Source: a virus
IMG/VR virus record: IMGVR_UViG_3300042904_000405
Span: 1 to 64,000 of that record
DNA length: 64,000 nucleotides
Strand: one strand, 5' to 3'
The notes under the pieces were generated by a model. The model saw only the letters and a program-made list of their open reading frames with translations, was not told the DNA's origin and did not search any database. Below, piece after piece: positions 21,342 to 47,568 of this stretch. The number at the start of each line of letters is the position of its first letter. Positions within the stretch are counted from its first letter, which is position 1. Made by a program: the position numbers and the translations under genes.

Positions 21342-21493
21342 GGGGAATCGGACGGCGGTTCGGTAGCGCAGCTCGGGTTGGGACACTGGCGCTGTTCGCC
21401 GTACGGCCAGTCCATCGTCTGATCGACCACGACCCAGCCGACACCTCCACACTCGGGGCAGTTGAACGGCGGTTCGGTAGGGCTACTCGTCAT
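21338..21493 (-). CDS. Small CxxC protein bounded by two EPP repeats
   Basis: MTSSPTEPPFNCPECGG...CPNPSCATEPPSDSP. Confidence 0.7.
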   Translation of the reverse strand: MTSSPTEPPFNCPECGGVGWVVVDQTMDWPYGEQRQCPNPSCATEPPSDSP

Positions 21494-21690
21494 CGCTGGC
21501 ACCTGCCTGTTTCGTTGCATCGGCGCTCGCCGCAACGTTCGTCGAGGAAGTCCGCCAGGGGGCAGCCGTGTTCGTGGCGGTCGCCGGGTCGCACATCGGC
21601 GGTGCATGTGGCGCATCGGTAGTGGCCGGTGAGTTTCCGCCACCAGCCCCACGCGCTATCGGACGGCGGTTCGATGCCCGGCTCAGGCAT
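21490..21690 (-). CDS. Small Cys/His protein with N-terminal EPP repeat
   Basis: MPEPGIEPPSDS...CATC...HEHGC. Confidence 0.7.
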   Translation of the reverse strand: MPEPGIEPPSDSAWGWWRKLTGHYRCATCTADVRPGDRHEHGCPLADFLDERCGERRCNETGRCQR

Positions 21691-21973
21691 CGCTCACCAT
21701 CCATTGCAGGTTCCAGACACGGTCTGTCGATGGGTCGTGATGGTCGCGAGAGCCGTCGTGGAAGTGGCGAGCGGGTAGATCGCAGGTGTAGTGCACCGCA
21801 CCTGACGTGATCCGCGCCGGGCAGACCGGCCACGTATTGCACGGACATCCCGGAGCGGGATCGAGCAGCGGGCCACCGCCGCATTCCGGGCAGGTGGACT
21901 CGGACTGGACGTGATGCGCCGCCATGTCCGGACATTGCCCGACCGGCACCCCGTGCGAGCAATCGATAGTCAT
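21683..21973 (-). CDS. Cys/His-rich small protein
   Basis: MTIDCSHG..CPECGG..CPC..C..C..H..H; SD GGAAGAGG. Confidence 0.6.
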   Translation of the reverse strand: MTIDCSHGVPVGQCPDMAAHHVQSESTCPECGGGPLLDPAPGCPCNTWPVCPARITSGAVHYTCDLPARHFHDGSRDHHDPSTDRVWNLQWMVSDA

Positions 21974-22212
21974 TCCCCGCCCTCTTCCTCGTCGGTCCCC
22001 GATCCGTTGCAGGCGGCGCAGACGCTGACAGTGAGACCCATGCGATCCCAGCAGCGGCCGAGCCCGAGGCAGTCCTGACACGGCACGGTGGCGGAGTTGA
22101 ACGGCGGTTCGGTAGCCCGTTCCCGCATCGCCTTGCGCTTGCACTCACACCCGCCCTGGAACAGGCAGTCAGGGTGGCGCTCGCACCTATTGAACGGCGG
22201 TTCGGTAGCCAT
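21970..22212 (-). CDS. Two-module Cys-rich protein with two EPP repeats
   Basis: MATEPPFNRC...ATEPPFNSATVPCQDCLGLG...CAACNGSG (DnaJ-type CxxCxGxG). Confidence 0.7.
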   Translation of the reverse strand: MATEPPFNRCERHPDCLFQGGCECKRKAMRERATEPPFNSATVPCQDCLGLGRCWDRMGLTVSVCAACNGSGTDEEEGGE

Positions 22213-22346
22213 CACAGGAGCGCCAGTCCGACCATTGTCCACCACAGTGCGAGCATGATGAAGCCCGCCAGGCAGACGGCTACGAGTAATCCGAGCGCGG
22301 CTTCGTCGTCGCTATCGGACGGCGGTTCGGCAGAGGGGTCAGGCAT
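22212..22346 (-). CDS. Small membrane protein with N-terminal EPP repeat (44 aa, not in ORF track)
   Basis: MPDPSAEPPSDSDDEAALGLLVAVCLAGFIMLALWWTMVGLALL; TGATG coupling both sides. Confidence 0.65.
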   Translation of the reverse strand: MPDPSAEPPSDSDDEAALGLLVAVCLAGFIMLALWWTMVGLALL

Positions 22347-22633
22347 CACAGACCATCCAGCCTCATGCGAGGGTCGAGCCGGCGCGGGGGCTGATTCCGC
22401 TTGAGGTAGCCGTGGAGTCGCTCGTCGAATGCCTCGTCCTCCTCAACCATGTTGAAGATGGCATCGCAGAGCTGCCATGCCTCCTCTCGGTTCTGCTCGG
22501 CGAGCTGCTCAAGGCTGAGCCCGCGCTCGCCCAGAGCCTGGAGAACGAGGGCGATCTCTGGGTCGCTGGCCCGTTCGTTGACCCAAGCGATCATCTCGCC
22601 GAGCGCGTTGCGCTCCTCGTCGATCTCGCTCAC
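22346..22633 (-). CDS. Hypothetical protein
   Basis: Coupled ORF with strong codon bias. Confidence 0.65.
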   Translation of the reverse strand: MSEIDEERNALGEMIAWVNERASDPEIALVLQALGERGLSLEQLAEQNREEAWQLCDAIFNMVEEDEAFDERLHGYLKRNQPPRRLDPRMRLDGL

Positions 22634-22878
22634 ATCGTCTCCGTCCGCGGCGTGATCACAGCCTCTCCGACACGGATCGTCCTCGACTTCTCCCGGGCGC
22701 CGGTCAGCAGACCCAGGCGGATCATCTGCTGGAGCATCGCTTGGATCGAGCCGGGGCTCTTCATGCCGATGCCCTCGGCGATCTCGCGCACCGACGGCGA
22801 GTAGCCGTGCGCGTCGATGAACGACTGCACGAACCGTTGGATCTCCGCGGCCTGCCGCGGGACGTAGTTGTCCTTCAT
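22630..22878 (-). CDS. Stand-alone LexA N-terminal winged-helix DNA-binding domain (no Ala-Gly site or S24 protease domain)
   Basis: RQAAEIQRFVQSFIDAHGYSPSVREIAEGIGMKSPGSIQAML...GLL....KSRTIRV matches the LexA DBD pattern. Confidence 0.85.
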   Translation of the reverse strand: MKDNYVPRQAAEIQRFVQSFIDAHGYSPSVREIAEGIGMKSPGSIQAMLQQMIRLGLLTGAREKSRTIRVGEAVITPRTETM

Positions 22879-25800
22879 TGGTTCAGCTCTCCTTGGATGT
22901 TGGGATTGAGTTGATCACGGCGCTTCCGGTAGAAGCGTCCTTCCACCGTCACGCGGCCGGCCGAGCCGACGCCCATGGTCGGACTGTCGGTCACCCCGGC
23001 CCATTCCCAGCGCACCGTGCCCGCTTCCACCTGGAAGGCGTGCTGCGAGCCGTCAGGCATGGCGACGAGCACGATGACCTCGGTGGCGTCCGTGAACTCC
23101 TGGCCGATGCTCATGTCTCGCGCTGCTCCATGCGCTCCAGCGCCTTGTGCGTCGACCAGCCGATGTGGCCACAGGAGCACCGATACTCGCGCGAGAGATC
23201 GGATACGCGGCCCGAGCTGCGCCGGCGCGACGGGTTCACCTTCGTCCTCCCGGTCAGCGTGACGCTGTGTTGGTTGCGCTCTCGCCTTGTCCGCTCGACG
23301 TCGGTGTACCAGATCTTCCTGGCCTGCGAACAGTGGAACCAGATCGGGTTGCCAGTCCCCGCTGAGCGGCTCACAGCACCGACTCGTATCGTGCGTGCCG
23401 CGTCTCGACGACGTGGCGGTCCTCGGCGGCGATCGTGGTGAAGATCTCGCCGCACGTGCAGCAGCGGGTGTCCGAGCACTCAGCCGCCGGGGCGTGCCTC
23501 CCCGTCGTCTTCTTGCGCTTCGTCGCCTTCACGTCGATGCCCAGCTTGCGCGCCTGGTCGGGGGTGAGGTGGACACTCATGCCGGCTCCTGCATCCCCAG
23601 GTTCTGGGCTTCGGCAGCCCACCAGAACACGTCCTCGGTGGGCTCGATCTCGGCGAGGAGATCAAATGCCGCCTTGCACCCACCCCAGTGGATGACGCCG
23701 CTCAGGTACCGCACGCGGGCGATCATCCGCTGTCCAGCCGCATCGGCGACGCCGGCGAACCTGCCCTCCGGGTCGCGGAGGCGCTGGGCGAACAGCAACA
23801 CGGCCTGCTGCAACGTGAGGTCGAACGCGCGGTCCGTGCAGTGGTATCCGCCGAACGGGTCGACGATCCCACTTATGAAGTTGAACGGCCCCTCGGGCTT
23901 GATCTCCCAGTCGTTCACGCGTCGTCCTCCGGTGCGCTCAGGTCGGTCACCACGATCTCGGTGCCCGTACGTTCCCACTTGGCGATCATCTTGTAGTCGA
24001 CGTAGCCCAGCTCCTTCAGCAACTCCGCCTTCGGCTTCGTCGCTGGCGCCACGAAGGCCTCGTGCATCAGCCGGATCGCCTCGGCGACGGCCTCCTCGGT
24101 CGATCGCTGCTCTCCGGTGGCCTTGTCGAGCCCGATCGCCCGCACCCTGATGGCACTCTCCAATTCGTCATGACGGAATCGCCACTTGCCGGTGGGCTTC
24201 ACGGCGTACAGGTTGGTGCCGAGCTGACGGGCCGAGCCCTCGAGCTGAGCCTTGGCCGTCGTCGTCAGCATCGACTCGGCGCGCCGGGTCTCCGACTGCA
24301 GCGTCGTCAACGCCTCCCTCATGGCGAGCGCCTCGTCTACATCCATCTCGTCGCACTGGTTCAACAGCTCGGACACGACGTCGATCGCCGCCAGGATGTC
24401 GCCCATTGAGACGGTCATGGCCGCTCGTTCCAGTAGCGGTAGCGCTGGAGCACTTCGAGCGGTGGATGGGCGTCGGCGTAGACAGTGCCGTCGAAGATCT
24501 CCTCGGCCTCCTGCGGCGAGCGGCATCCCTCAACCGCATTGATGATCTCGTCGGTCTTCTTGCTGCGCATGTAGTACGTGGCCATCACCACACCTTCGAC
24601 TTCATGCCCTGGACCTCAGCCCTCGACGGCGAGTACGGGCGCTCCACCCGACGGCCCTCCTTCTTCGCCTCGGTCGCCTTGTCCCGGCGCTTCTGCTGGA
24701 TCTCGCGGGCGAGCCAGCCGGCGTCGCGGAGGCCCGCTGCGTCGTACGTCCACTTGAACCTCTTGATCTTCATCAGTCCAACTCTCCTACTGAAACGTTG
24801 ATGCGGGGTGGGGCCGGCTCGTAGCACCACAGGAACGGCCCGCCGGCGGCCGAGTAGCCGGAGTTGTCGTAGCCCGACAGGCAGCGGAACGTGCGCTCCG
24901 TCTCGGGATCGGTGATCGTGATCCAGCCCCCGCCGACGGTCGCCCTGACCCCGACCTGTGGTCCGGGGGGTTCGTCGACCGGTGGCGATTCGTCGACGTA
25001 GTAGGCGCCACCATCGTCGCCGCCGCATGCGGCGAGCAGCGCCACCGGTAGCAGCAGGGGCCGCTTCACTGCTGCGCCTCCAGCATCCGCCGCCTGCGCT
25101 CGGCGAGGTACCTCTCCACCTCGATCACAGACCGATGGATCGGCCCGGTCGACGGCGCTGTGAACTCCGGGATGCGGATGTAGCGCTCGCCGTCCCACTC
25201 CAGCCGCTCGCCGACCGGCTCTGGCCGCTGCGTCTCGGTCTTCGCCCAGTGCGCACGCAGCCGGGCCGCGTCCTCCTCCCGTGCCCGCATCAGCTCGGTC
25301 TGGCTGAAGCCGCCGTCCTCTTGGATGTTGCGTTGCTCAATGCCCATCAGTCGAACCAGTCGTCCTTTGCGTGTCGTGCGATGTACATGGCCTTCTCCCA
25401 ATCGTCGTCGTGGATGTCGTCCATCCCCGCCCATCCGTGCTTCGTCAGCAGCGTCTTCGCCTTCAGCTCGTCCTCGGGGGAGAGCTGCTCCAGCAAGCCT
25501 CGCAGCACGACCGGCTTGTTCGGATTCGGCGCCGGCGCCTCAGCACGGGTCGGGGTCCGTGCTGGGCGCTCGGCGCCTGACCCGCGTGAGCGCTGGGGGG
25601 GCGCCTCTGCGCGGGCGGTCTTGGATGGCAGTCGTTCGAAGCCCGCCATGATCCTGACCTTCATCTTGGCCGACACGTCGTCGACCGCCTTGAAGATGAG
25701 CATGCGATCACCTGGCTGCATCCCGATGAGCCGGGTCGCCATCGCTGCGCCCGCTGGCTCGTCGGTGCGGTGGGTGCGCACGGTCTCGACCTCGCCACCG

Positions 25801-27608: not shown

Positions 27609-27656
27609 TGGCGTCCTTCCATGCTATGCGAGCGTACCGCTCGGATGTTCGGTTGT

Positions 27657-28250: not shown

Positions 28251-28537
28251 GTCGTTCCTCTCGTCGCCCAGATGGACGTCGTCTCGCCCAGTGTCACGCC
28301 GTCGTGAGCTGCCAGCTCCTGATCGACGTACGCCCGCAGGTCGACGGCGATGTCGCCGTCGCCCCACGAGACGCGGGCGATCAGCGCGGCGCTGTCACCC
28401 GGCGCCCGCACCACGATGTCGATGCCCGAGTACTCGCTCACGCTGACGTCGTCGTCCGCATCCAGCTCGCACACGATGCGGCTGCGCGCCTCCTGCTCGC
28501 CTTCGATCTCCTCAATGGCGTCGTCGAGTGCACTCAT
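28247..28537 (-). CDS. Hypothetical acidic protein
   Basis: SD GAAGGAG, ATGA coupling. Confidence 0.65.
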   Translation of the reverse strand: MSALDDAIEEIEGEQEARSRIVCELDADDDVSVSEYSGIDIVVRAPGDSAALIARVSWGDGDIAVDLRAYVDQELAAHDGVTLGETTSIWATRGTT

Positions 28538-29250
28538 GCGGCTCCTTCCAGGTACGCCAACAGCTGGCGTCCGATGTGTTCGGTGTAGCGCGGTGGGATC
28601 GACTCGCACAGCTCGTCGTTGGTCATCCAGTCGATGCCCATCGCCTGCTGACGGATCGGCCCCTCGCCGGCGTACTGCAGGTGCCCATGCACCCCGACGA
28701 CCGAGGCGAGCCGCCCCTCCTTGCGGTTCTTGCTCGCCAGCGACTGGAACCGCGGCGTCTGCCAGCCGTGGTCGCACGGCGGCGCTGTCAGCGGCCAGTT
28801 CGTCTCGAAGTACCGGTGGCGGCGGATGTCCATGCCGAAGCTGGATCCGCACAACCGCACCGGGTCGACCATGTGTCGGCGAGCGCCCTCAACGTTCTCG
28901 ATGACGTAGGGCAGCCCGCTCGCCTGCAGGGCCTCACGCGTCGCAGCCAGCAGCCACGCCGTCCCCTTCGCGCCCCGCGCCTTGCGGTCGGTGCCGGTCG
29001 ACGTTGAGAAGTCATGACACGGCGGGGACGCATGGATGGCGCTGTAGAACGCCCGCCCCCACATTCCGACGGCGTCGGCCTGGATGTAGCTGTCGAGGTA
29101 CTCCAGAGCGTCGGCCTGGACGAACCCGCAGCCGGGCGGGTAGTTCGGCTGCGGCGCTACATCCACGCCGACGACCGAGAAGCCCGCCTTGTGGTAGCCC
29201 GCCGACGCCCCGCCTGCTCCGCAGAACAGATCGAGGATGACCGGCCTCAC
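28534..29250 (-). CDS. DNA cytosine-C5 methyltransferase
   Basis: LDLFCGAGG, IHASPPC, YVIENV, RRHRYFE motifs. Confidence 0.9.
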   Translation of the reverse strand: MRPVILDLFCGAGGASAGYHKAGFSVVGVDVAPQPNYPPGCGFVQADALEYLDSYIQADAVGMWGRAFYSAIHASPPCHDFSTSTGTDRKARGAKGTAWLLAATREALQASGLPYVIENVEGARRHMVDPVRLCGSSFGMDIRRHRYFETNWPLTAPPCDHGWQTPRFQSLASKNRKEGRLASVVGVHGHLQYAGEGPIRQQAMGIDWMTNDELCESIPPRYTEHIGRQLLAYLEGAA

Positions 29251-31684
29251 ACGGCCTCCACGCACTGTGGCTTCAGGTACATCGGGTTGCCGAAGCGTGG
29301 CTGCGGGATGTCCAGCTTGACGGCCACCCTGTCGCCCTTGGCCGAGTACACCGTCACGCCGGTGGCGCCGTCGAGCACCTTCGGCCGGATGTTCGTCAGC
29401 CGCACCCGCGTGCCCACCGGCAGCGACGCGTTCCTGGCGTTCAGCGCCCGGGTGACCAGATCCTTCAGCTCGCCGAGCTGCTTGGCGTCGGCCTCGCGGC
29501 TGATGAACTGGTCGACCTCTTCGTACGTCATGATTCCCCTTTCAGGTTGTGCTGGGTCGCCCAGCAGTTGGTGCGGGGCTTGTTGACCTCGCCCTCGCAG
29601 ATGCATTGGTCGATGGGGATCGTCTCCACCTTCGGCTCCTCATCAGGCAGCCCTTTGACGCAGGGGAAGACCTTGAACGTGTCGAGGTAGTTCTCCCACT
29701 TGCCGTAGTGAGGGTCGCCCTCGTTGTCGGCGATGATGTCGGACCACGTCGTCTCAACGAGCTGCCGCAGGCTGGCGTACTCCTCGTCGAGCGACTCGGG
29801 GTTGCCCCGGTACGGCCGCCGGCGCAGATCGGCACAGCCGGCGCGATGGACGTGCCACTCGCCGCCCATTCCGATGTTCGGCCCGGTGACGTTGAGGATC
29901 ATGCGTCGTGTCCTTCCTCTCTCAGGCAGTTGCCCTGTTGGTCGATCTCGTAGCCGCACTCCCCGCAGCCGTAGGCCTCGCCGCATCGACCGCACGTCGG
30001 CGACACCGTGTCGCCCTGCATGATCAGCTCCAGGTCGCTCTCGGTCCACGGCTCGTGCTTGGTCCAGAACTGGCATCCGTTGCACCAGAACGTGCGCAGC
30101 ACCTGCGTGCCGTCCTGGAACACCTGGAGGTCGAACATCGCCTCCAGCCGTCGTGCTCGCTCGGGCATCAGCACTCCCTCATCAGCTCTCGGAGGCGCGC
30201 GTCGCCGGCCGAGGAGAGCTGCTTGCCGTAGCCCTCCTCGTACTTCTCCACGCCGAACTGTTCGATCGCGGGGGTCAGGCCGCCGAGCTTGGCGATCTCG
30301 TCGCAGACCTGACCGCGGAACTGCGGCCAGACCATGTCGAGGGCGAGGACGTCTTCGTCCGCGGCTGCGACCGTGGTCGGCGGCAGCGTCCGGTAGACGA
30401 TCTGCGGCTCACTCTTCTGGCAGGCGACCAGGCCCAGCAGCGCGATCGGGATGATGAGCAGTCGCTTCATGATCTGTCAGCCTCCAGCTTGTGTTCGACC
30501 CACTCGGTGTAGCCGAGCACGGTGTCACCGTTGGCGACCTCGTACTGCCAGTCGGCGAGCGTGTAGTCGTCGTGTTCCGTCATCTGTTCCTCCACAGGTG
30601 GTCGATGTCTCGCATGTGCTCCTCGTACTCCTGCTCCTCGGTGTAGGGCTCGATGTCGGGGATCGTGTACTCGGCGCGGCCTCGGACGTGCAGCTCCTCG
30701 GTGCCAGCGCAGAACGCCGAGTGCGTCCCGATCGACACCCAGTCGTACTCGTTGGTCAGGTCGTTCCACCGCACGTCGAGGTGGTGCTTGCACGTCAGGC
30801 AGATGATCGGGTGGTGCGCCACGGTTCCTCCTCAGCAGCTGGCGTAGCCCATGAACGCCCACTGGCCGTCGCCGGCCGGGACGCACACGGCGCTGCCCCA
30901 CTTGTCGTCGAACACCTCGGCCATCTGGCGGAAGTTCGGGATCTGACGCAGCTGCGTGATCGCCTTCTTCGCATCGATCTCCCACTGGAGGGGCGGCGTG
31001 ATCTTCGGCTTCTTCCACTTCAGCGCCCTCGTGATGACGGCGTTGTTCGTGTCGTACTGCGGGCGCCGCGGTTCGAACGGCTCCGCTGGCGGCGTGTCGT
31101 CGACCGGCACCCGGCAGGTCACCGTCTCGGTCACCTTCATCGTGACCGTGCGGGTGTAGGTCGCCGTCTTGTGCAGCGGCTCCGGTGGGCGATCATCCAG
31201 CACCTCGTAGCTCGATGCGCTGAGGGCGTTGAACAGCTCCTCGGCTGTCATGCCTTTCGGCAGCTGGTAGCACACGAAGCCCGCCTTCTCGGCGATCGTC
31301 CCCGTGTAGCCACCGTGGCCGAACTCGTGCGCCGCCTCCCGGTAGGCGTTGTCGAACGCCTCCGAGGCGGTCTTGCCCTTGCCGATGCTGAAGAACGTTG
31401 TTGCTCCCATGTCATCCTCCTGTTGTGACAGCTGACAGCTCGATCACCCAGTAGCCCCAGGGGAAGCGCTGCTCCTCCGCCCACCCGTCGGCCACCTCGG
31501 GATCGTCGAACGGACCGATGTGGTTGAAGCCATCGACCGGCGTGCCGGTGATGACGATGTGCTGGGCAGCGCCCGGGGCGCGCGTCAGTTGGATCACCTC
31601 GTCGTTCAGACGGATGACGGCCTGTCGCCAGGTCTCGTCGTCGCCCGTGTTGGGGATCGGCGTGTCGCCGCAGTCGTGGTCCAT
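29247..31684 (-). other. Run of small early genes (29247-29531, 29528-29902, 29899-30168, 30168-30470, 30467-30583, 30580-30822, 30832-31410, 31412-31684)
   Basis: Coupled ORFs with GGAGG SD sequences. Confidence 0.65.
30168..30470 (-). CDS. Lipoprotein
   Basis: MKRLLIIPIALLGLVAC lipobox. Confidence 0.75.
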   Translation of the reverse strand: MKRLLIIPIALLGLVACQKSEPQIVYRTLPPTTVAAADEDVLALDMVWPQFRGQVCDEIAKLGGLTPAIEQFGVEKYEEGYGKQLSSAGDARLRELMREC

Positions 31685-32571
31685 CACGTTCCTCCTGTTG
31701 TCACTACGAACCCGCTCTTGCCGATGAGCTGGCGGGCCCGACCCTTTGCGCTCAGGTCTCCGATGACGCCCTCCTGGAACATCCACTCGTCGGTGAGGTC
31801 GGCGTCGACGACGTTGGCCCAGTAGACGTTGCCGCCGAGCCAGATCGGCTCCGGCTTCTGTCCCTTGCGACGAGACGTGACGACAGCGACTGAACCGCCG
31901 CGCTCCACGAAGTCGAAGACGGCGTGCTGATCGCTGTTCTCGTTCCAGCTGTACGCCAGGCGGTAGGTCGCGCCGACCCAGCCGTCGGTGTCGAGGACGA
32001 ACGGGTCCTTCGTGTACCCGTAGCTGAGCACCCGCGTCCCGAGCGTGTCGCCGTTGGTGAGCGACGGCAGGATCAGATCCCACCGGACGTCGCTATTGAC
32101 GTTGGGCCGGAACAGGATGTTCGTCTTCCAGTGCCGGGTCCAGGCGGCTTCCAGCTCCCAGCCCAGCAGGAAGGCGAACGCCCGCGGCTGCTCGCAGAGG
32201 AAGTCCACCTTCGCCCGGCGCGCCTCCTTGACCGCTTCGAAGGAGCCGTTCCCGTTGTCGAGGACGCACACCTTCTGACAGTCGCCGGCATGCGGGCAGG
32301 CGTTGACGATCAGGCCACGCTTGACCCGTGTCGTCGTGTGCTGAAGCGTGAGCCCGTAGCTCGGCACCTTGCCCTTCAGCAGCTTGTCGTTGTCGGCCGG
32401 CCAGGTGAGCAGTCGCAGGGCGGGACCGGTGAAGCCTCGCTTCTCCCGGTACGCCTGGTACAGCTTCATCGCCAGGCCTCGTTCGTGCCTGCTGGCATGC
32501 GAGGCTCCCCGGACGAAGTACTCGTCCATGGCCGCCGCGTGCGGCAGCAGGTGGTCAGTCAGCGTCTTCAT
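31684..32571 (-). CDS. GP88-like phage protein (Cys-cluster, radical-SAM-like)
   Basis: NACPHAGDCQKVC...ARRAK...FRPNVNSD...YGYTK pattern. Confidence 0.7.
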   Translation of the reverse strand: MKTLTDHLLPHAAAMDEYFVRGASHASRHERGLAMKLYQAYREKRGFTGPALRLLTWPADNDKLLKGKVPSYGLTLQHTTTRVKRGLIVNACPHAGDCQKVCVLDNGNGSFEAVKEARRAKVDFLCEQPRAFAFLLGWELEAAWTRHWKTNILFRPNVNSDVRWDLILPSLTNGDTLGTRVLSYGYTKDPFVLDTDGWVGATYRLAYSWNENSDQHAVFDFVERGGSVAVVTSRRKGQKPEPIWLGGNVYWANVVDADLTDEWMFQEGVIGDLSAKGRARQLIGKSGFVVTTGGT

Positions 32572-38176: not shown

Positions 38177-38220
38177 TGCCTCTCACAATGTCATCGACCG
38201 TAGACCGGTCGATTCGTCAC
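38177..38220. repeat. Imperfect direct repeat copy 1 (TGCCTCTCACwATGT-N10-AGACCGGTCkATyyGTCAC), possibly a leftward promoter
   Basis: Second copy at 38612-38655 with identical spacing. Confidence 0.7.
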
Positions 38221-38360
38221 ACCCCCCTGGGGTGGGGGGAGGGGGCCGGGCCGGCGGGTAGGGCTGTTTCTAGCCCCCGGCGGGCCGGGCGTATGTCGAT
38301 TTCCTGCCCCCCCTAGGGGGGAGGGGGGTGGGGGGTGGCCCCCCCTGGGAGCCCCCCGCA
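38221..38360. other. Poly-G/poly-C tract region with CCCCCCTAGGGGGG palindrome; G-quadruplex-forming potential
   Basis: Multiple G4-G6 runs separated by 1-5 nt. Confidence 0.7.
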
Positions 38361-38370
38361 CACTCGCCGG

Positions 38371-38534
38371 CGAACCCCTGTTCGGGAACGTCTGTTCGAC
38401 GAACCCCTGTTCGGGTACACGCGTTCGGGTACGGGTGTTCGACGATCGAGTGTTCGGTCGCCGGGCAAACCCATGTTCGTACGATCGAGTGTTCGATCGC
38501 CGGGGGATCAAGCGTTCGTACGATCGTTCGTTCG
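38371..38534. promoter_or_regulatory. Tandem array of ten LexA (Gram-positive SOS/Cheo) box-like sites
   Basis: 14-mers at 38371, 38385, 38400, 38414, 38428, 38443, 38466, 38482, 38505, 38521; two perfect CGAAC-N4-GTTCG, all with invariant GTTCG. Confidence 0.8.
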
Positions 38535-38538
38535 ATTA

Positions 38539-38614
38539 GCAAGCGATGCCCCATCGCTCCATCGCTCCGTGCGATCGCTCGCACGCTCCGATGCTCCGAT
38601 GCCCCATCGCTTGC
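38539..38614. repeat. CATCGC/GCTCC-rich block bounded by 10-bp inverted repeat
   Basis: GCAAGCGATG (38539) ... CATCGCTTGC (38605); CGATGCCCCATCGCT occurs twice. Confidence 0.65.
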
Positions 38615-38655
38615 CTCTCACTATGTGGACGCGGGCAGACCGGTCTATCTGTCAC
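38612..38655. repeat. Imperfect direct repeat copy 2
   Basis: Matches 38177-38220. Confidence 0.7.
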
Positions 38656-39920: not shown

Positions 39921-39959
39921 ACCCCGCGCCCGATCGACTTTCTGTCACGGGCGCGGGGT
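39921..39959 (+). terminator. GC-rich hairpin
   Basis: ACCCCGCGCCCG...CGGGCGCGGGGT after stop codon. Confidence 0.6.
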
Positions 39960-40250: not shown

Positions 40251-40290
40251 AAGAAGGATGGTTTGGTGAGAATGTGGTACTTTGGTCTAC

Positions 40291-40482
40291 ATGAATGAAC
40301 CACAGGAGAAGAAGGCTTGGGGGAGGCCGGTGAAGGATCCTTCGGGGCCGGCGAGGAACATGGGGATCTCCCTGGCGCCGAGGCATCAGGAGATCCTCAT
40401 CCGGGAGGCGGAAGCTCGGGGGATCAGTCGGTCGGAGCTGGTGGCGAGGCTCCTCGATCGGCTCGTGGGGGTGAAGAAGTGA
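40291..40482 (+). CDS. Ribbon-helix-helix (CopG-like) DNA-binding protein
   Basis: GRP..MGISLAP....L..EAEARGISRSELVARLL; TACTTT-7nt-ATG. Confidence 0.8.
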   Translation: MNEPQEKKAWGRPVKDPSGPARNMGISLAPRHQEILIREAEARGISRSELVARLLDRLVGVKK

Positions 40483-41939
40483 GCGGCGTGGCGTACATGG
40501 CACGGAACCGGGAGACGGCGGACAAGGTGACGGAGATCCTCGAGCTGCCAGAGGGCAGGTGGGTCGACGTCAGGGTCGAGCTGGAGACCGACGAGCCGGC
40601 GGTGGCCGTCGTCAGGCTGCTGCTCTCCTCCGCTCAGCTCCACGCCCTCGTCGACGCCTGCACGGAGGTGGTGTGATGGATGACTACATCGTCGTGACGA
40701 CCCCCGTGCCGAACCCGGACTACGACCCGAACGCCACCTGGCCGTCAGTGAACCTGCAGGAGGAGGTGTTGGCCTTCCAGATCTGTGTGCTCACAGGCGC
40801 AGGGTGGTACACGCCTCTCGCCATGGAACCTCTCCCGTACAGCCAGCTCGGCCTCGCCCTCCACATCGTCAAGGCGCTCAACGCCTACGCCGAACCGACC
40901 ACCGAGGAGGAGGGGTCATGAGGGTCATCCTGGCGGTGACCTCCCTCGTGATCATCTTCGTGACCTCGAGGGACGACTGGTTCTGGCAGGGACTCGCGGC
41001 GATCGCCGCCGCGGTGCTGGCCTTCACGGCTGACTCCCCTGTCGACGCAGGGATCTGGGGGATCGTGGCGGGGCTCGGGGCCTGCGACGCCCTGCTCGCG
41101 CTGGAAGGGCACCGGCTCAGGCGGGTGCGACGGATGCGGCACCTGCGGACCGGGCTGGAGCGCCGGGGGCGGTAGGCATTGCGCAGCTGACTCTCGTGGC
41201 GTACGATGAGGGTCGGACATAGCATACGAAAGGCCACTCCATGGACGAAGAGATCTACAACGAGGCGACGGCGGAGTTCTACTGCGCAATCGCCCTCCAG
41301 ACGGGCAGGTGCGCCGAGCTGCTCAACGGGCTCGCCAACGGCGGGGCGGTGACGCTCGACGTGAGCACCACCCCGCCGGGCTTCGCCTTCATCTCGGCCG
41401 AGCAGGTCGCACAGCTGGCGGAGGGTCTGTGATGGCCCTCGAAGAACTGCAGAGGCTGTTCCCGATCGGGACGCGGTGGATGATGACGGCGAACGACCGG
41501 ACACGTGAAGCCACGGTCGTCGGCTACGAGGCGGATCCGGTCGACGGCTGGGTGTGGGTCGTGGTCCGCAGCGCCGAAAACCTCGGGGCCTTCCACTATG
41601 AGTCGAACGTCTGGGACAGGATCGCCGAACCGACACCGTGCCCAATCGTCGAGGCCGAGAGGTTCCGCATCGTGGAGGATCCCGAGGCGAGTCCGTACCG
41701 GACGCTGTCGCGGGGCCTCAACGGGACCCCGATCACCCTCCACCCGGCCGACGCCAACCTCGCCTCGCTCGGCTCGTGGGCGCCGTACACGTGGGAGAAC
41801 CGGTGATCTGGTACCTCATCCGCTGGCTGGTCTCCCTGGCGTTCCGCCGGATCGGGTTCATCGACGACGTCGACGTGGAGGTGACGCGGTGATCTGGAGG
41901 GTCATCAGGTGGCTCAAGCGAAACCTGGCGACGTGGTGA
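40479..41939 (+). other. Run of small genes (40479-40676, 40676-40921, 40918-41175 membrane, 41241-41432, 41432-41806 and two tiny MIW.. ORFs to 41939)
   Basis: Coupled start/stop overlaps. Confidence 0.6.
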
Positions 41940-42457
41940 CGCGCCCCTACCGGGTGCTGTTCTGCGGCAGCCGCAACTGGTCGGCCCCTGAGCCGATCCG
42001 CATCAAGCTGGAGGGGATCCTGGAGAAGCATCCCAACGTTGAGCTGGTCCACGGCGCTGGCCGCGGCGCCGACATGATCGCCGGCGCGGTCGCTGAGTCC
42101 CTCGGCGTGCCGGTCCACGCCTTCCCAGCCGACTGGGACGGAGAAGGGCTCGGCGCGGGGCCGTTGCGCAACCAGCGCATGCTCGACTTCGGCGTCGACG
42201 CCATCTACGCCTTCAAGGAGGGCTTCATCCGCACGATGGACAGAGGCGGGACCGAGGACATGGTCAGACGGGGCTTGGAGGCCGGGGTGCCGGCTCAGAT
42301 CATCGACACGGTCACCGTCACGACGGGGACGATCATCCACCAGGCCATCGGGCGCAACAGCGAGGGCATGACGACGAGCTGTGGCCTCGAGCGCCAGCAC
42401 TACTCGACGTGCTCGGGCTTCGCCTCCATGGTGACGTGCGAGGAGTGCCTGACATGA
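41936..42457 (+). CDS. SLOG/YspA-like (DUF2493) protein
   Basis: RVLFCGSRNW, VHGAGRGAD, FPADW, AGPLRNQRML, GGTEDM. Confidence 0.85.
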   Translation: MTRPYRVLFCGSRNWSAPEPIRIKLEGILEKHPNVELVHGAGRGADMIAGAVAESLGVPVHAFPADWDGEGLGAGPLRNQRMLDFGVDAIYAFKEGFIRTMDRGGTEDMVRRGLEAGVPAQIIDTVTVTTGTIIHQAIGRNSEGMTTSCGLERQHYSTCSGFASMVTCEECLT

Positions 42458-42678
42458 GCGCCGAGGAACGAGCCGCCGATGTGATCCGCAGCGCCGACGG
42501 CAACCCCGACGTCTACAGGCACGCCGCTCGGGCTCTCGCTGACGCCGAGCTGCTCGTCACCGACGAGATCCAAGCGGTGCTCGATGCGTTCGTCGCTCTT
42601 CGCAGTGATGGGTCGACTCTCGCCTACCACCGGGCTGGCAGGGCTCTGGACGCCTACCTCGCATCGAGGCCGTCGTGA
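42454..42678 (+). CDS. Hypothetical protein
   Basis: Coupled ORF, SD GGAG. Confidence 0.55.
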   Translation: MSAEERAADVIRSADGNPDVYRHAARALADAELLVTDEIQAVLDAFVALRSDGSTLAYHRAGRALDAYLASRPS

Positions 42679-43007
42679 CCGAACGTCGCCAGAAGTACAC
42701 CATCGGGCCCGGCCCGTGGTGCGGGACCTCCGGCGGGTACGGCAACCACCACTGCCGGTGCGATGCCTGCCGGGCCGCCAACGCCGCCATGGCCAAGGAC
42801 TGGCGGGATCGCAACGCCGAGCGCTCCCGGGCGGTGAAGGCGCGGTGGAGGCGCAAGATGGGCATGGCCGAGCGTCCGCCGGTCGTCCGCAACCCGGACT
42901 GCCCGCTCGGCTACGGCAGCCGCACCGGCTACACACGCCACGGCTGTCGCTGCGATCTGTGCCGCGAGGGCAACAACCGCTACCACCGAGAGCGTCGCCG
43001 GAAGTGA
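42675..43007 (+). CDS. Basic protein with two GY..H.CRCD.CR zinc-binding repeats
   Basis: GGYGNHHCRCDACR and TGYTRHGCRCDLCR. Confidence 0.7.
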   Translation: MTERRQKYTIGPGPWCGTSGGYGNHHCRCDACRAANAAMAKDWRDRNAERSRAVKARWRRKMGMAERPPVVRNPDCPLGYGSRTGYTRHGCRCDLCREGNNRYHRERRRK

Positions 43008-43070
43008 CCGCGGGACGCGCGATGCACGCGAGGGGATGCCGCCGGTACGACCACCGTCTACCGTTTGGGC

Positions 43071-43685
43071 ATGAAACGACTCCCAATCCTGGCGGTGGCG
43101 CTCCTCGCGCTCGGCACGCTCACGGCGTGCGTCCCGATCCCTGGTCTGTCGAACAACGGCTTCACGAAGGCCCGCTGGCCGAACCGCACGTCGGTCAATA
43201 TGGCGAACCCGTCGAACGTCAACGGCTACAACATGGTCGAGTCGGTCAACGAGTGGAACTTCACCGCTGGGTGGCGCATGATCGACGTGTACCCGCAGAA
43301 TGACGCCTACGGCAACGCCAACGCTGACATCAGGTTCTCGCCGATGTCGCCCATCATCGACGGGCGAGGCGGCCGCCACGCCATGTGGGTGCAGGAGTTC
43401 CTGAACGCTGACCGCAGCGTCCACCACTGCGTCATCCACTACGACCCCGAGTTCCTGGCCCAGGTCCCGGAGATGCGCCATCCCGACGTGATCTCTCACG
43501 AGGTCGGCCACTGTCTCGGCTGGTACACGACCGGCGACATCAACGGGCTCTGCGATCCTGGCTACCAGGGCGTCATGTCGTACTGCCGCTTCAACAGCTA
43601 CCAACCGTGGTGGGAGAACCACCCAGCCCCGTGGTGGGGCGCTGACGACCAGACGATGCTGGCCAACGCTGGATACCGGTGGTGA
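43071..43685 (+). CDS. Lipoprotein zinc metallopeptidase (matrixin-like)
   Basis: MKRLPILAVALLALGTLTAC; VISHEVGHCLG; GVMSY Met-turn. Confidence 0.8.
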   Translation: MKRLPILAVALLALGTLTACVPIPGLSNNGFTKARWPNRTSVNMANPSNVNGYNMVESVNEWNFTAGWRMIDVYPQNDAYGNANADIRFSPMSPIIDGRGGRHAMWVQEFLNADRSVHHCVIHYDPEFLAQVPEMRHPDVISHEVGHCLGWYTTGDINGLCDPGYQGVMSYCRFNSYQPWWENHPAPWWGADDQTMLANAGYRW

Positions 43686-44014
43686 GCGAAGGCTCCCAGA
43701 TCGTTGTTCGCCTCCCGGACGTGGAGACGGGCCAGCTCGAGGAGCTGTGCGAGCACTTCGGGCTGACCCGCTCCCAGATGGTGCGCCGGATGATCCACCT
43801 GGCGCACTCAAAGCTCCCGTCGCGGTCTGACCCCGCCGAGCTGAAGGGTCCGTCGAAGCTCGCCAAGCAGCTGGAGGAGCGAGCCGCTGTGAGGATCCGC
43901 AACCGGCGCTCGGGCCTGCAGAAGGTGGAGCCGGCGGCCTGTGAGCGCCACCAGTGGACGGCGCTCGGCGACGGTCTCGACCAGTGTCAGGTCTGTTTGG
44001 CCATGAAGGGCTGA
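43682..44014 (+). CDS. RHH-like DNA-binding protein with C-terminal Zn site
   Basis: IVVRLP....LEELCEHFGLTRSQMVRRMI; CERHQW...CQVC. Confidence 0.65.
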   Translation: MSEGSQIVVRLPDVETGQLEELCEHFGLTRSQMVRRMIHLAHSKLPSRSDPAELKGPSKLAKQLEERAAVRIRNRRSGLQKVEPAACERHQWTALGDGLDQCQVCLAMKG

Positions 44015-44028
44015 GGTACCATCCGGCC

Positions 44029-44211
44029 ATGGCAACCCCGACCAACATCGTCATCGTCATGGAGCCCGGCGAGCTGCACTTCGCCGTGGTGAACCGCGAC
44101 AACTACGAGACGCTCCTCCACTCGGAGGACTACGACTCGATCTCCAACCGCAACCGGGCGGCCCGCGACCTCAAGAAGCTCACCGGCTGGCCCACCGTCG
44201 ACCACACCTGA
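44029..44211 (+). CDS. Small protein (DUF1508/YegP-like fold possible)
   Basis: TACCAT-6nt-ATG; HFAVVNRDNYETLLHSEDY.S.SN..RA. Confidence 0.6.
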   Translation: MATPTNIVIVMEPGELHFAVVNRDNYETLLHSEDYDSISNRNRAARDLKKLTGWPTVDHT

Positions 44212-44586
44212 CCCCCACTCGCCCCCCCGGAGTGCCGACAGGACTCGCGAGGGGGAGGCCAGCTACACCGGGACAGAGGTTACGAGGCCCGGCGTGGGGG
44301 CGTGTCTGGCCTTACGTCAGTTGAGCGCTGCAGAGAGGAAGGCCGGGCGCTGGCTGGACGGGTGCACCTGCATCGACAGATTGCGCGCCTCGTCCTCGCC
44401 GAGCACGACGATCGTGGGCATCTGATCGAGCAGTGCTTCCCAGTCGATCTCATCCATTGCGCCCTCCTTGGCAGAAGTGAAGGAAGCCGAGCCAGCGCTT
44501 CAAGCGGATCAGCTTGTCGCACCGCGGGCACCGGAACCAGTCACCGGAGACGGCTTCGATTCGGCCCTCGGGTTCGTCTGCGGCGT

Positions 44587-44760
44587 TCAAGACAACAGAT
44601 CCTTCAGCTTCGTGATCTCGTCGTAGGCCTTCTTGACCTTGCCGCCGTGACGTTCGACGAGCTGGTTCCAGTCGACGAAGACGGACAGCGGCGAGGCCGA
44701 GATCTCGCCGATCTCGGTCAGCCCTTCGAACTGGGTGTTGATGTCGTCTTCGTTGCTCAC
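44587..44760 (-). CDS. Small hypothetical protein
   Basis: GTGA coupling; MSNEDDINTQFEG... Confidence 0.55.
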   Translation of the reverse strand: MSNEDDINTQFEGLTEIGEISASPLSVFVDWNQLVERHGGKVKKAYDEITKLKDLLS

Positions 44761-45371
44761 TTCGTCTCCGGGAGTCCGCCGCTAGGAGCGGCTGTCGTTG
44801 GGGTCGTGTCCGCGGGCCACGCCACCGTTGAACGGGGAGGCTCCACGGAGCAGTTGACGCAGCCTCGGGGCACGAGGGGGGCGGTCGTCGAAGAGACGTC
44901 GGTACCACGAGGGACGGTTGTCCCAGGCGAAGTCGATGAAGTCGAGGAGGGCGTCGGCTGCGTCGTCGAGGTCTCGGGCACGGTCACCTGGGTCACCGGC
45001 GTGCAGTCCTGACACACGGTCGTCGATGTCGTGGAGTCTGGCACGGTCGTCGTGGTCCCGTCAGGCGGGTCGCACTCGCCGAGCGTGTCCTGCTCGTGGC
45101 CGGCCTGGGTGGTGCCGTTCTCGTTGAAGTGACCCCCGTTGCCGTAGACGGCCTGCGGCGGCAGGTGCAGCGTGACGTAGTTCGCCGGGTCGTCGGCCCG
45201 GCCAGCGACGTGACAGATCGTGATCTTGTCGTTGTTCCCAGCGGCAGGCACGGCCCCACCCGTCGGAGCGAAGAGCCAGATGGCCGCGGCACCCCCGACG
45301 GCGAGGACGCCTGCGATGAGTGGGGCGGCGTGGGCCCGCTTGAGGGGCCTCTGGTTCTCTTGGATGTCCAC
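44757..45371 (-). CDS. Secreted/anchored protein with KITICH domain and Thr/Pro-rich tail
   Basis: TACGAT-6nt-GTG; TM; DKITICH...GH...GH..D.LGEC; ends GGLPETK (LPxTG-like but lacking TM anchor). Confidence 0.7.
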   Translation of the reverse strand: MDIQENQRPLKRAHAAPLIAGVLAVGGAAAIWLFAPTGGAVPAAGNNDKITICHVAGRADDPANYVTLHLPPQAVYGNGGHFNENGTTQAGHEQDTLGECDPPDGTTTTVPDSTTSTTVCQDCTPVTQVTVPETSTTQPTPSSTSSTSPGTTVPRGTDVSSTTAPLVPRGCVNCSVEPPRSTVAWPADTTPTTAAPSGGLPETK

Positions 45372-45465
45372 TCGGCGATCGTATACGACGCCGCCTAGCA
45401 TGTCCAGCGAACGAGCGTTCGCCGGCGGTGGACAAAGCTGCTATGCCACCTCTACGGTGGCTGCT

Positions 45466-45627
45466 ATGAGCGAGGCCAGCGAGAACTCCCGCCCGGGCAA
45501 GGAGGGCAAGATCCAGTCCTTCTACGTGCGCCACGAGATCCTGGCCAAGCTCGGCGCCCTAGCCAAGGAGCGCGGCGTCAGCCGCAACCGCATGCTGACT
45601 GTGCTCGTCGAGGAAGCCGATCAGTAG
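45466..45627 (+). CDS. Ribbon-helix-helix DNA-binding protein
   Basis: SFYVRHEILAKLGALAKERGVSRNRML; TACGGT-7nt-ATG. Confidence 0.75.
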   Translation: MSEASENSRPGKEGKIQSFYVRHEILAKLGALAKERGVSRNRMLTVLVEEADQ

Positions 45628-45959
45628 CACTGCCACCCTTGGTCGACCTTGGCGAGCGAGCCGTCGACGTAGTCCTCGGACACGGCGATCTGCTCGGCCT
45701 TGGTCGCCTGCCACGGCTGGTCGGCGTAACGCTCACCGCCGAGGCGGTCCCAGTAGTAGTGGTTCCACATCAGGCCGCCGGAGAACGTGCCGTGGCTGTT
45801 CGTGACGGGCCGGTGGGACCAGTTGCCACCTGACTCACATTCGGCGATCGCATTCCAGTCGACGGTCCATGTCTGTGACCGCTGTGGCTGGCACTGGCCG
45901 GCGCAATCGGTGAGCAGAGCCACCGGCAAGGCTGCGATCGCGAAGAGACGAGTGTTCAT
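45621..45959 (-). CDS. Resuscitation-promoting-factor (Rpf)-like transglycosylase, secreted/lipoprotein
   Basis: VDWNAIAECESGGNW...FSGGL.W...W...GG..YA..P.QAT.AEQIAV.E...QGW.C. Confidence 0.88.
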   Translation of the reverse strand: MNTRLFAIAALPVALLTDCAGQCQPQRSQTWTVDWNAIAECESGGNWSHRPVTNSHGTFSGGLMWNHYYWDRLGGERYADQPWQATKAEQIAVSEDYVDGSLAKVDQGWQCY

Positions 45960-46004
45960 TGGTTGGTTCCTCCATGGTTGCCGCCCGGCTTCGGATGCGA
46001 CTGT

Positions 46005-46555
46005 CTAGCAGCCAGCGCCCTTCTTCCAGAACGCGGCCTTCACCGTCGGGTAGGTGCCGTTGAGGCTCATCTCGTAGGACTGCTCCATGTAGCACGTCCG
46101 CCTGACGGCATCCCGGGGGTGGCAGTACGGCACGCCGCCGATCGACGCCTCTTGCTCGGGCATCACCCGGCCGCAGCGCCCACAGATGCGCTCAACCACC
46201 GTTCACCCGCTCACGGATCATCTCGACGACGCGGGGCTCGCTGAACAGCCAGACGAACACCTCGGCCCACTGCTGCTTCGGGAACGTGGCCCGCAGCTGC
46301 TCGAGCTTCAGGTGAAGGTCCGGGTCGGCGCGGAAGGTGACGACGGGGCGCTCAGCCATCTTCGTCCCAGTCGTATGGCTTCCAGTTGTCCGCTGACTCC
46401 GGCCGCCACTCGATCTCTTCGCGCCGCCACTCCTTGTACAGCATGTCGCCGGACCGCATGCGGGTGACCGCCTCACGGCCATCGCTGGTCTCACACCACA
46501 GCGAGCCGTCGGGGGCGAGCACCCGGAACCAGCGTCCGCGTTTCCAGTCAGGCAC
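46005..46555 (-). other. Three small genes (46005-46199, 46192-46359 RHH-like, 46352-46555)
   Basis: Coupled ORFs. Confidence 0.55.
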
Positions 46556-47568
46556 CGGTCACCACCTTCCATGTTCCGTCCGGGCTGACCCGCACGATGG
46601 TGTAGCTCTGAGCGAACAGCGATGTGCGCGCCGTCTCGGGGTCGTTCGCTCCCCACCACAAGCGGCCGTCGCGATCAACCACGTAGAACATGTCGGCGAC
46701 CTGTTTCGGCGGTTCGGTAGCGGGGTCAGGCATTGGCGATCGCCGCCCTCAGAGCGTGGACGAGTGACGAACCCTCGCCCGTGCTCACTACGCCGCGCTT
46801 GTCCCCAATCACCACCGCGGTTCCGTGAGTCGTGATGGCGTGCGGTATCCGCACCGTCGCTCCGCTGCCGAGCACGACGTCGAGTAGATCGTCAGTTGTG
46901 AGCAGGTCGGCACAGTCTGGACAGAGCGCGAACCTCAGAGGGATGAGGTCCGAGCAGCGGCAGGGGCTATCGGACGGCGGTTCGTTAGCTGGTGCTGGCA
47001 TAGCCGTCCATCCATCGCTCGGCGATTCGGTAGCAAGGGTCCAGACAGAAGTGCCAGACCTGTACGTCATCGGCGCACCATCCCATGTCGGCCAATGGTC
47101 GGCGCGTGCCGCAGATGGCGCAGATGAACGGCGGTTCGATGGCAGGCGCAGGCGGCGGACTGCTCGGCCACGGCGGGCACTTGCTCACGTCGGTCCGCGG
47201 GTTGCTAGCCATCGGCCGATTCTTCGCACGGGCGACAGATGCCGTCAATCAGTTGCTCCCGCGACTCGCAACGCTCACAGACACCGCTGCGGCCCTCGCG
47301 GAAGTAGCGACGAGTGTTTGGTGGGAGGTGGGCGAGGGGGTCGCTATTGAACGGCGGTTCGTTAGTCACGGTCGGCCTCCAGCCATCGCCCGATGGCTGG
47401 GAGTCCGACTCGGACGACGGGCTCATCGGTGTCGAGCACGGCTCGCGCCTCGTCGCTGATGGACGGCGGTTCAGACGCCTGATCGCACGGCCACGGTTCG
47501 CCGCACGTCGCACATCGGACGATGGTCGCCGGGCGATGGCGATTGAACGGCGGTTCATCAGCGGGCAC
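46548..47568 (-). other. Five small EPP-motif genes (46548-46733, 46726-47001, 46985-47211, 47205-47369, 47362-47568), four with CxxC
   Basis: MPDPATEPPK, MPAPANEPPSDS, ..AIEPPFIC, MTNEPPFNS, MPADEPPFN..ASEPPSIS. Confidence 0.7.
46703..47557. repeat. EPP-repeat cluster 2: six sites at 46703 (degenerate), 46971, 47125, 47348, 47460, 47544
   Basis: Same CGGCGGTTC core, orientation and reading frame as cluster 1. Confidence 0.92.

Follow-up and report, generated by a model that had tools for sequence, protein, structure and literature searches.

Start-linked coding repeats resembling a LexA-type box in two small-gene clusters of a high-G+C soil phage

The window analysed comprises bases 1-64000 of the 72,403-bp virus record IMGVR_UViG_3300042904_000405, which is estimated to be 95% complete and has a G+C content of 0.67. 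Portal, head and tail genes were found on the plus strand, with the large terminase gene at 19325-20848, and two leftward gene strings were found to carry clusters, each of about 1 kb, of small open reading frames (ORFs) that share a repeated word. Among the 10-mers and 12-mers of the genome, this word, GAACCGCCG, shows the strongest over-representation; it occurs in 12 minus-strand copies, every one of which is read as E-P-P (GAA-CCG-CCG) in a single frame (EPP repeats hereafter), and its sole plus-strand copy, at 31892, is antisense to a gene. Besides the EPP repeats, the window harbours a non-coding tandem array of LexA-type boxes, two single boxes and a gene for a short protein with the LexA DNA-binding domain only (mini-LexA), which lies just upstream of EPP cluster 1 in the same leftward string (Table 1). 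An Rpf-like transglycosylase domain encoded at 45621-45959, the high G+C content and the type of box point to a probably actinobacterial host. The terminases of cultured phages were only ~30% identical, and a nucleotide search of cultured phages with 20500-24500 gave no match.

In nine of the 12 EPP copies the glutamate falls within the first seven codons of a small ORF (six times as codon 7, twice as codon 4 and once as codon 5), and the remaining three were found at codon 26, in the interior and at the C terminus of their ORFs. All 12 belong to minus-strand ORFs, lie on the coding strand and have the same orientation with respect to transcription. The third-position G+C content of the EPP frames (0.72-0.83) exceeded that of the antisense frames (0.57-0.70), which identifies the minus strand as the coding one, with a bias weaker than in the large genes. 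Two sub-types were distinguished, ..T-E-P-P-F-N (TTC AAY) and M-P-x-P-x-x-E-P-P-S-D-S (TCC GAT AGC), and one copy reads E-P-P-K. Moreover, GGAGG or GGATGG was present 6-10 nt 5′ of five of the ten EPP-ORF starts, and most of these starts overlap the stop codon or end of the upstream gene. The encoded proteins are otherwise unrelated, several being Cys-rich and one having a hydrophobic tail. The frame, the position near starts, the Shine-Dalgarno-like sites and the lack of relationship among the proteins would all suit a translated leader or translation-initiation cassette whose likeness to a LexA box is coincidental, an explanation that is considered unlikely overall. Such a module would give new small genes a working or throttled start, the latter possibly through Pro-Pro pausing near the start codon; alternatively, the N-terminal peptide would be a tag read by another protein. 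The trend of G+C-rich genomes to use rare A/T-ending codons near starts is also counted in its favour. On the other hand, the three internal or C-terminal copies do not fit it, nor does a search with a 49-aa EPP protein, which found only itself and no other protein sharing its words; a search with another EPP protein gave no match.

Table 1. Features of the window; 'perfect core' denotes GAAC-N4-GTTC, and mismatches are counted over the 12 bases of TCGAAC-N4-GTTCGA
Feature	Position	Strand	Remarks
EPP cluster 1	21338-22346	-	far end of long leftward string, directly after mini-LexA ORF
EPP copy A-T-E-P-P-S-D-S-P-stop	21349..21362	-	C-terminal in ORF 21338-21493, 9 nt ahead of next ATG; 2 mismatches/12
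EPP copy M-T-S-S-P-T-E-P-P-F-N	21463..21476	-	E codon 7, ORF 21338-21493; perfect core
EPP copy M-P-E-P-G-I-E-P-P-S-D-S	21660..21673	-	E codon 7, ORF 21490-21690
EPP copy M-R-E-R-A-T-E-P-P-F-N	22098..22111	-	6 codons after in-frame ATG inside ORF 21970-22212; perfect core
EPP copy M-A-T-E-P-P-F-N	22191..22204	-	E codon 4, ORF 21970-22212; perfect core
EPP copy M-P-D-P-S-A-E-P-P-S-D-S	22316..22329	-	E codon 7, ORF 22212-22346 (44 aa, hydrophobic tail)
EPP cluster 3	46548-47568	-	head of leftward string starting beside HNH gene
EPP copy M-P-D-P-A-T-E-P-P-K	46703..46716 (word at 46707)	-	E codon 7, ORF 46548-46733; CGAAC half only
EPP copy M-P-A-P-A-N-E-P-P-S-D-S	46971..46984	-	E codon 7, ORF 46726-47001
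EPP copy A-I-E-P-P-F-I-C	47125..47138	-	codon 26, ORF 46985-47212; perfect core TCGAAC-CGCC-GTTCAT
EPP copy V-T-N-E-P-P-F-N	47348..47361	-	E codon 4, ORF 47205-47369; perfect core
EPP copy A-S-E-P-P-S-I-S	47460..47473	-	internal, ORF 47362-47568; poor box, 5 mismatches/12
EPP copy V-P-A-D-E-P-P-F-N	47544..47557	-	E codon 5, ORF 47362-47568; perfect core, edges TGAAC/GTTCA
Mini-LexA, 82 aa, LexA DNA-binding domain only	22630..22878	-	PF01726, E 3.4e-12, 46.4 bits vs. cut-off 23.7
Tandem box array	38371..38534		non-coding, after G-rich tract; ~10 units each ending GTTCG, two perfect CGAAC-N4-GTTCG
Conserved layout of G-rich tract and boxes	window 38200-38620; G006 contig 5 (L207) ~1900-2300; G008 (L290) 10560-10960; G011 (L304) 15520-15900
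Single box GGAACGAGTGTTCG	17719..17732		overlaps codons 2-6 (M-A-N-T-R-S) of 70-aa ORF 17524-17736 (-)
Single perfect box CGAACGAGCGTTCG	45408..45421		in gap, 6 nt upstream of ATG of ORF 44757-45401 (-)

The bases of the EPP core proved to be invariant beyond what the encoded peptide requires. Under the codon usage counted in 40 long ORFs, where GAA accounts for 16% of Glu codons and CCG for 52% of Pro codons, GAA-CCG-CCG in 12 of 12 copies has a probability of ~4e-17. Other E-P-P tripeptides in supported frames use different codons, both in this genome (4/4) and in contig 5 of the related genome G006 (5/5). Furthermore, Pro codons 2 and 4 vary in the four homologous MPxP leaders (CCT/CCA; CCG/CCC/CCA) next to core Pro codons that do not, so that something beyond the protein keeps the core bases, and the EPP core is held at the nucleotide level. 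A cassette conserved through protein need alone cannot fix these three codons in every copy while the neighbouring Pro codons drift. In particular, GAA and the third base of the second CCG, which are the synonymous positions that make both half-site cores of a LexA-type box (GAAC and GTTC), are fixed in 12/12 copies. The conserved stretch extends from -6 to +17 relative to the core (GCTACC-GAACCGCCG-TTCAATAGC) and takes in GCT, AAT and GAT, all of them rare codons.

RNA folding was considered as the cause of the fixed codons. Overall, the leader folds were no more stable than those of shuffled sequences, and among 32 synonymous versions of the core in nine leaders the native one ranked 5-19 for folding energy and 2-32 for start accessibility. 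As the native codons were not extreme, local RNA folding was rejected, and the same ranks speak against the cassette. Local RNA structure thus fails as a reason for the fixation of the codons. A factor acting in trans is left as the better type of explanation, and a LexA-type protein is the only candidate to which the genome itself points. A factor of another kind, be it a translational repressor such as RegA of phage T4, a small RNA or a different DNA-binding protein, is regarded as very improbable. Its target would be a ~24-nt near-palindrome at the message start, GCTAnCGAAC-CGCC-GTTCnATAGC, which agrees with the conserved stretch described above, with the complementarity of the consensus arms GCTA and TAGC, with the single orientation 9-18 nt after the start codon, and with the pairing of GGAUGG with CCGUCC predicted in two of the three N-terminal EPP-S-D-S leaders. 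However, the outer arms pair in some copies only, the folding energies were overall not below those of shuffles, neither a complementary RNA nor a candidate factor was found, and the identity of half-site and spacing with LexA-type boxes would have to be a coincidence.

The box in question is the actinobacterial LexA (SOS) box, TCGAAC-N4-GTTCGA (PMC3381160). As the earlier note had pointed out, two 14-mers that cover most of the EPP copies, CGGACGGCGGTTCG (at 21349, 21660, 22316 and 46971) and TGAACGGCGGTTCG (at 21463, 22098, 22191, 47125 and 47348), each differ by one base from CGAAC-N4-GTTCG, at position 3 and position 1, respectively. With one mismatch allowed, CGAAC-N4-GTTCG was found in 22 windows compared to 3.51 expected, a number that none of 100 shuffles reached. 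These were nine EPP copies, eight sites inside 38371-38534 and five elsewhere (2311, 4745, 17719, 28028 and 45408). Moreover, GAACGGCGGTTCG within one mismatch occurred 11 times (0.26 expected), and the exact core GAAC-N4-GTTC also 11 times (0.76 expected), namely three times in the array, six times in EPP-F leaders and twice in single boxes (17720 and 45409). The count of 22 sites put forward previously was not recovered as such, as the coding copies of GAACCGCCG number 12, one of them (46707) lies outside the third cluster proposed there, and the 22 one-mismatch windows differ in membership.

Nine of the 12 EPP copies had at most one mismatch over the ten specified bases of CGAAC-N4-GTTCG and may be called near-consensus, a number that lies beyond chance; poorer are the three copies at 47544 (GTTCA), 47460 (TGGAC..GTTCA) and 46703 (without the left half). 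Regarding the GAAC-N4-GTTC core, six copies were perfect, five had one mismatch and one had three, and over the 12 bases of the longer box the mismatches were one (one copy), two (eight copies), three (one copy) and five (two copies), the best being the copy at 21660 (TCGAAC-CGCC-GTCCGA). A one-mismatch match to CGAAC-N4-GTTCG is expected at ~5e-5 per position (3.51 per 64,000), and the chance that the whole repeat family falls within one mismatch of the box is ~1e-3 when registers and the two sub-types are allowed for, so that a resemblance by chance is unlikely. The cassette, in which this likeness to the other repeat family of the genome is accidental, is weakened by this figure.

A position weight matrix was trained on 17 boxes of three relatives, none of them from this genome. 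Nine of the 12 EPP sites scored 9.3-13.3 bits (ranks 9-28 of 72,388 windows, with the copy at 21660 highest), and the remaining three 4.9, -4.0 and -6.9 bits. The array units of this phage ranged from 7.3 to 16.0 bits, the boxes at 45408 and 17719 reached 17.2 and 13.4 bits, respectively, and the relatives' own boxes 13.8-25.3 bits; the scores of nine EPP sites therefore fall within those of its array. Judged one by one, single EPP copies are in a twilight zone, and that a whole family sits there is improbable.

In the array itself, one half is invariant (GTTCG on the plus strand) and the other degenerate, whereas the relatives' boxes are clean palindromes. Four phages share a layout in which tandem (T)CGAAC-N4-GTTCG(A) boxes come after a G-rich tract (38300-38534 in the present phage); behind the boxes of G011 stand TGTGGATAA / CATCCACAGG words, which we take to be DnaA-box-like, and tandem GTCGACC and GTCGTCGAC repeats. 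The conserved region looks like an origin or regulatory hub. The two single boxes indicate that the box is used outside the array. The one at 17719 scored 16.8 bits with a matrix based on the array, from whose training set it was absent, and its overlap with the start of an ORF indicates that boxes within 5′ coding sequence occur elsewhere in the genome; this ORF, which has a strong Shine-Dalgarno-like GAGAGGAG upstream and no match in Pfam, sits among the plus-strand late genes. The box at 45408 lies where the minus-strand ORF 44757-45401 diverges from a plus-strand ORF starting near 45468, and a promoter-like site (45406-45378) overlaps its region. The end of that plus-strand ORF reads like a ribbon-helix-helix protein, with no Pfam match for 45220-45627.

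The mini-LexA matched PF01726 over residues 8-67 and LexA repressor chains over residues 6-74 (best E 1.1e-6), and a search with it gave matches in only three records. It comprises LexA's N-terminal domain for DNA binding and lacks the one for cleavage and dimerisation; in LexA, dimerisation is provided by the C-terminal domain. It was the only LexA-type regulator seen, no search having been aimed at repressors with a helix-turn-helix and a stoperator domain.

From these results, a dual-coded element is proposed at a rough probability of 0.45, that is, a translated leader whose bases may also be preserved as a LexA-type box, though a weak one, or failing that as the invariant half-site of one. 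According to this proposal, this lineage would have fitted some nine small accessory genes with a short leader module at their 5′ ends. The module would consist of a Shine-Dalgarno-like site and a start codon, from which 4-7 codons run up to GAA-CCG-CCG-T(T/C)C, translated as ..E-P-P-F/S.., with its nucleotides also held as a near-consensus box, (C)GAAC-CGCC-G(T/C)(T/C)C. A LexA-type protein, which could be the mini-LexA, the host LexA or both, would bind the intragenic EPP sites, and both small-gene clusters would thereby share a regulator with the array. As it lacks the C-terminal dimerisation domain, the mini-LexA may need only the invariant half-site (GTTCG, plus strand) common to all sites. 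The effect of binding might be a polar roadblock, silencing of the clusters or titration of LexA. The binding of any protein to the EPP sites, its identity and its effect are what we infer from the sequence. A more specific form of the proposal appears doubtful, namely an 'operator-leader' in which the opening codons of a dozen small genes would spell a half-site code read by a monomeric and non-cleavable mini-LexA. In that form, the same 14 bases would serve as N-terminal peptide and as in-ORF polar roadblock silencing the two accessory-gene clusters, and the EPP sites together with the non-coding array would act as a sink for host LexA on replicating genomes.

A terminase profile search gave identities of up to 55%, and relatives of the phage were found with a narrow alignment of four sequences; no viral relatives were obtained when the terminase alone was the query, and a 12-sequence alignment gave at most 39% identity among the matches listed. 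The seven relatives were a 65,433-bp contig (contig 5) of the metagenome-assembled genome G006, with a terminase 55% identical, and the viral records G007-G012 (39-53%). Many of the closest terminase relatives (P0002, P0003, P0006, P0009 and others) were 840-1000 aa long and matched in two stretches around an insert of ~350 aa, which may be an intein and is missing from the terminase of this phage. Perfect boxes were counted in tandem arrays of G008 (seven), G011 (four) and G006 contig 5 (three), and nearly all the GAAC-N4-GTTC cores of the relatives lie inside tandem arrays. Small ORFs with a LexA_DNA_bind domain above the Pfam cut-off were present in G007, G008, G010 and G011 (four of the five records searched), with G012 below it, and tblastn matches to the mini-LexA were obtained in G006 contig 5, G007 and G011, with a weak one in G009. 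No comparable dispersed repeat was found in any of the seven relatives, and the counts of GAACCGCCG in G007-G012 were no higher than those of a reversed-word control. Thus, the box array and the mini-LexA, kept by relatives with terminases 48-55% identical, are a trait of the phage group and the EPP array is one of this phage alone.

The leader is young. The closest homologues of the gene bearing the E-P-P-K copy (46548-46733), 73-81% identical, lack it, starting M-P-E-R-R-V-A-D-M-F-Y or V-T-K-P-V-A-Q-M-W-Y where the present protein reads M-P-D-P-A-T-E-P-P-K-Q-V-A-D-M-F-Y, and the word was therefore placed recently into the 5′ end of an existing gene. On this sequence evidence, the EPP leader is described as a recent, lineage-specific graft. 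Exact-word scans of a viral collection yielded four loci with a 19-mer and one with a 17-mer, all single, mostly internal and without arrays; a paired-motif scan yielded 30 loci, all of them unrelated tandem repeats, tRNA-like or other contexts with no start-linked EPP; and a viral scan with an alignment of the E-P-P-K gene family gave no match. A metagenome scan with the 19-mer found two loci, one of which (L125, 1640-1760 of a 1,795-bp metagenome contig with a G+C content of 0.665) has the same leader geometry. Its 19-mer is identical to three EPP-F-N copies, with E at codon 7 behind GAGGAGG-N4-ATG, and it runs over the stop codon of an ORF in convergent orientation; downstream, the frame looks Arg-rich and may not be coding. 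The recurrence of the same word, codon and ribosome-binding context in L125 favours the cassette.

The uniqueness of the array among the records examined and the leaderless homologues would also be explained by a neutral recent spread, in which recombination or gene conversion carried the core from one 5′ end to another, or small genes were shuffled with the core as a short 'linker' of homology; the copies would then be identical because they are recent, and not through selection for binding. Two copies each, 84-114 nt apart, are present in three ORFs, as such a process might leave them, and four joints in contigs from soil and groundwater runs end at EPP copies, with only 20-36 matching letters on the shorter side. 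The joints 46721>47119, 47140>47349 and 47474>47329 (window 46700-47480) were seen in contigs of two runs with 20-32 letters on the shorter side. Joints at EPP copies may be rearrangements between copies in related genomes, or repeat artefacts. Over 46400-47800, contigs from four soil/groundwater runs had a depth of 0-6.7 and no usable variation at the EPP sites. Nevertheless, the identical tract spans only 9-21 nt between unrelated flanks, which is short for conversion, the homologous MPxP leaders have diverged at synonymous sites beside the invariant core, and a neutral spread gives no reason for the likeness to a LexA-type box. It is held to be improbable, less so than a factor of another kind; the alternatives taken together come to about an even chance.

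Several results weigh against the dual-coded element. None of the 12 copies is a perfect box, although conservative codon changes would yield one. The nine better matrix scores fall below every box of the relatives, and the array-free 72-kb genome G012 gives by chance 19 windows of at least 8 bits and nine of at least 10 bits. The matrix scoring suggested in the earlier note thus placed nine EPP copies in the range of the phage's own array, but at a level that also arises by chance some 10-20 times per genome. Its claim of a common polarity was upheld in that GTTCG lies on the plus strand in 10 of the 12 EPP copies and in 10 of the 10 non-coding units, but an oriented matrix built from this phage's array scores nine of the 12 EPP sites better on the opposite strand, so that 'same polarity' means only that the invariant half is on the same strand. 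Its caution that LexA does not require a fixed spacer applies here: the third base of the first CCG, a synonymous position of the spacer, is also fixed in 12/12 copies (p ~4e-4), and conservation continues into GCTA.. and ..ATAGC, beyond the 16-bp box. The single frame of the 12 copies and the location of nine of them in the first seven codons, mostly behind a Shine-Dalgarno-like site, would equally suit an element that is translated or linked to translation.

The EPP array is absent from 7/7 relatives, where GAACCGCCG occurs 0-2 times each; as most of them keep the box array and/or the mini-LexA, the EPP repeats are not an inherited part of that system. The converse pattern, EPP arrays kept without the SOS array and mini-LexA, which the note had held to contradict a common regulator, was not seen, and this neither refutes nor supports its claim. 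In G006 contig 5, a small ORF starts V-N-K-P-T-E-P-P-T-F-T-C with GAG-CCA-CCG, that is, with EPP at the protein level without the DNA word, which is counted in favour of the cassette. Moreover, no EPP site was found in a promoter or operator region or at a transcription start, all 12 lying inside ORFs, and a scan for the sigma-70-type consensus returned no promoter-like site in 20800-23300 and two in 44200-48200, so most EPP sites are away from recognisable promoters. Finally, chromatin immunoprecipitation sequencing in Mycobacterium tuberculosis revealed no binding of LexA at 13 matches to its motif that lie within genes (PMC3381160).

The EPP repeats were compared with known systems as these are portrayed in the cited sections of the reports. 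With SOS boxes they share the half-site and the 4-nt spacing, as well as one strong and one loose half, as in the Streptomyces venezuelae LexA consensus tCGAAC-N4-GNNCGa (PMC9380542); the four EPP-S-D copies match CGAAC-N4-GNNCGA exactly. Some real boxes also lie at or just inside gene starts. In contrast, the EPP sites are translated, form 12 repeats inside operons, have a fixed spacer, are absent from relatives and include no perfect box. In cluster A mycobacteriophages, stoperators are asymmetric sites of 13 bp that occupy small gaps between genes throughout the genome; a two-domain repressor that may be monomeric binds them, and with repressor bound the sites are proposed to stop elongating polymerase (PMC9283540). 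Both systems have numerous copies of a short site that all point the same way with respect to transcription (12/12 for EPP), whereas the EPP sites are set within codons, form only two clusters and resemble the palindromic LexA box.

The start-associated sequences (SAS) and extended start-associated sequences (ESAS) of cluster K mycobacteriophages lie 3-7 bp upstream of the start with the Shine-Dalgarno core inside them; their conservation extends over the cluster, and a factor from host or phage has been suggested for them (PMC3203893). They resemble the EPP repeats as a repeated word of 13-nt scale at the starts of non-structural genes of different families, in one orientation. However, the EPP word is translated and lies 9-18 nt downstream of the start in nine copies, only one copy ending upstream of a following ATG (by 9 nt), and it is found on unrelated small proteins of one phage, with no conservation across phages of the SAS kind. 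With the Bacillus tectivirus GIL01, the present phage shares a protein limited to the LexA N-terminal domain and tandem LexA boxes. The GIL01 protein gp6 is a truncated LexA homologue that acts as an activator at one promoter through its own palindrome, distinct from the host box (PMC6182141), and host LexA with gp7 acts on the tandem boxes (PMC6182141; PMC4551915), so that two LexA-family proteins act on GIL01. The mini-LexA has the gp6-type domain composition, and the cited sections on GIL01 mention no coding repeats. The EPP repeats are not classed with the SOS boxes, the stoperators or the SAS, because they lack the promoter location and conservation of the first, the intergenic location of the second and the upstream position of the third. 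Literature searches, which were aimed at known systems and not exhaustive for novelty, found no description of such coding repeats.

Regarding other genes of the window, Pfam returned nothing for most ORFs neighbouring the EPP clusters. One ORF of the pair 41909-42457 and 28534-29265 has a YspA/SLOG-family domain (PF10686, E 3.5e-17), and the other a weak match, at the cut-off, to the N terminus of a C-5 cytosine methylase. Furthermore, a repeat with a 66-bp period, GCCGACAACG, was observed at 13615, 13681, 13747, 13813 and 13879 within the 710-aa ORF 12526-14658, which implies 22-residue protein repeats; the ORF had no match in PHROGs.

If the EPP leaders are not bound by a LexA-type protein, they would be a start-linked, nucleotide-constrained word comparable to the unexplained SAS of cluster K phages. 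If they are bound, the sites of a regulator would be written into coding sequence as a portable leader, spread over unrelated genes in one lineage, through which packed phage operons would gain control without intergenic space. Dual coding would thereby gain a tangible example, and the stoperator concept would come to cover intragenic sites and another family of repressors. A non-cleavable LexA domain of a phage would also be linked to the SOS circuit of a high-G+C host.

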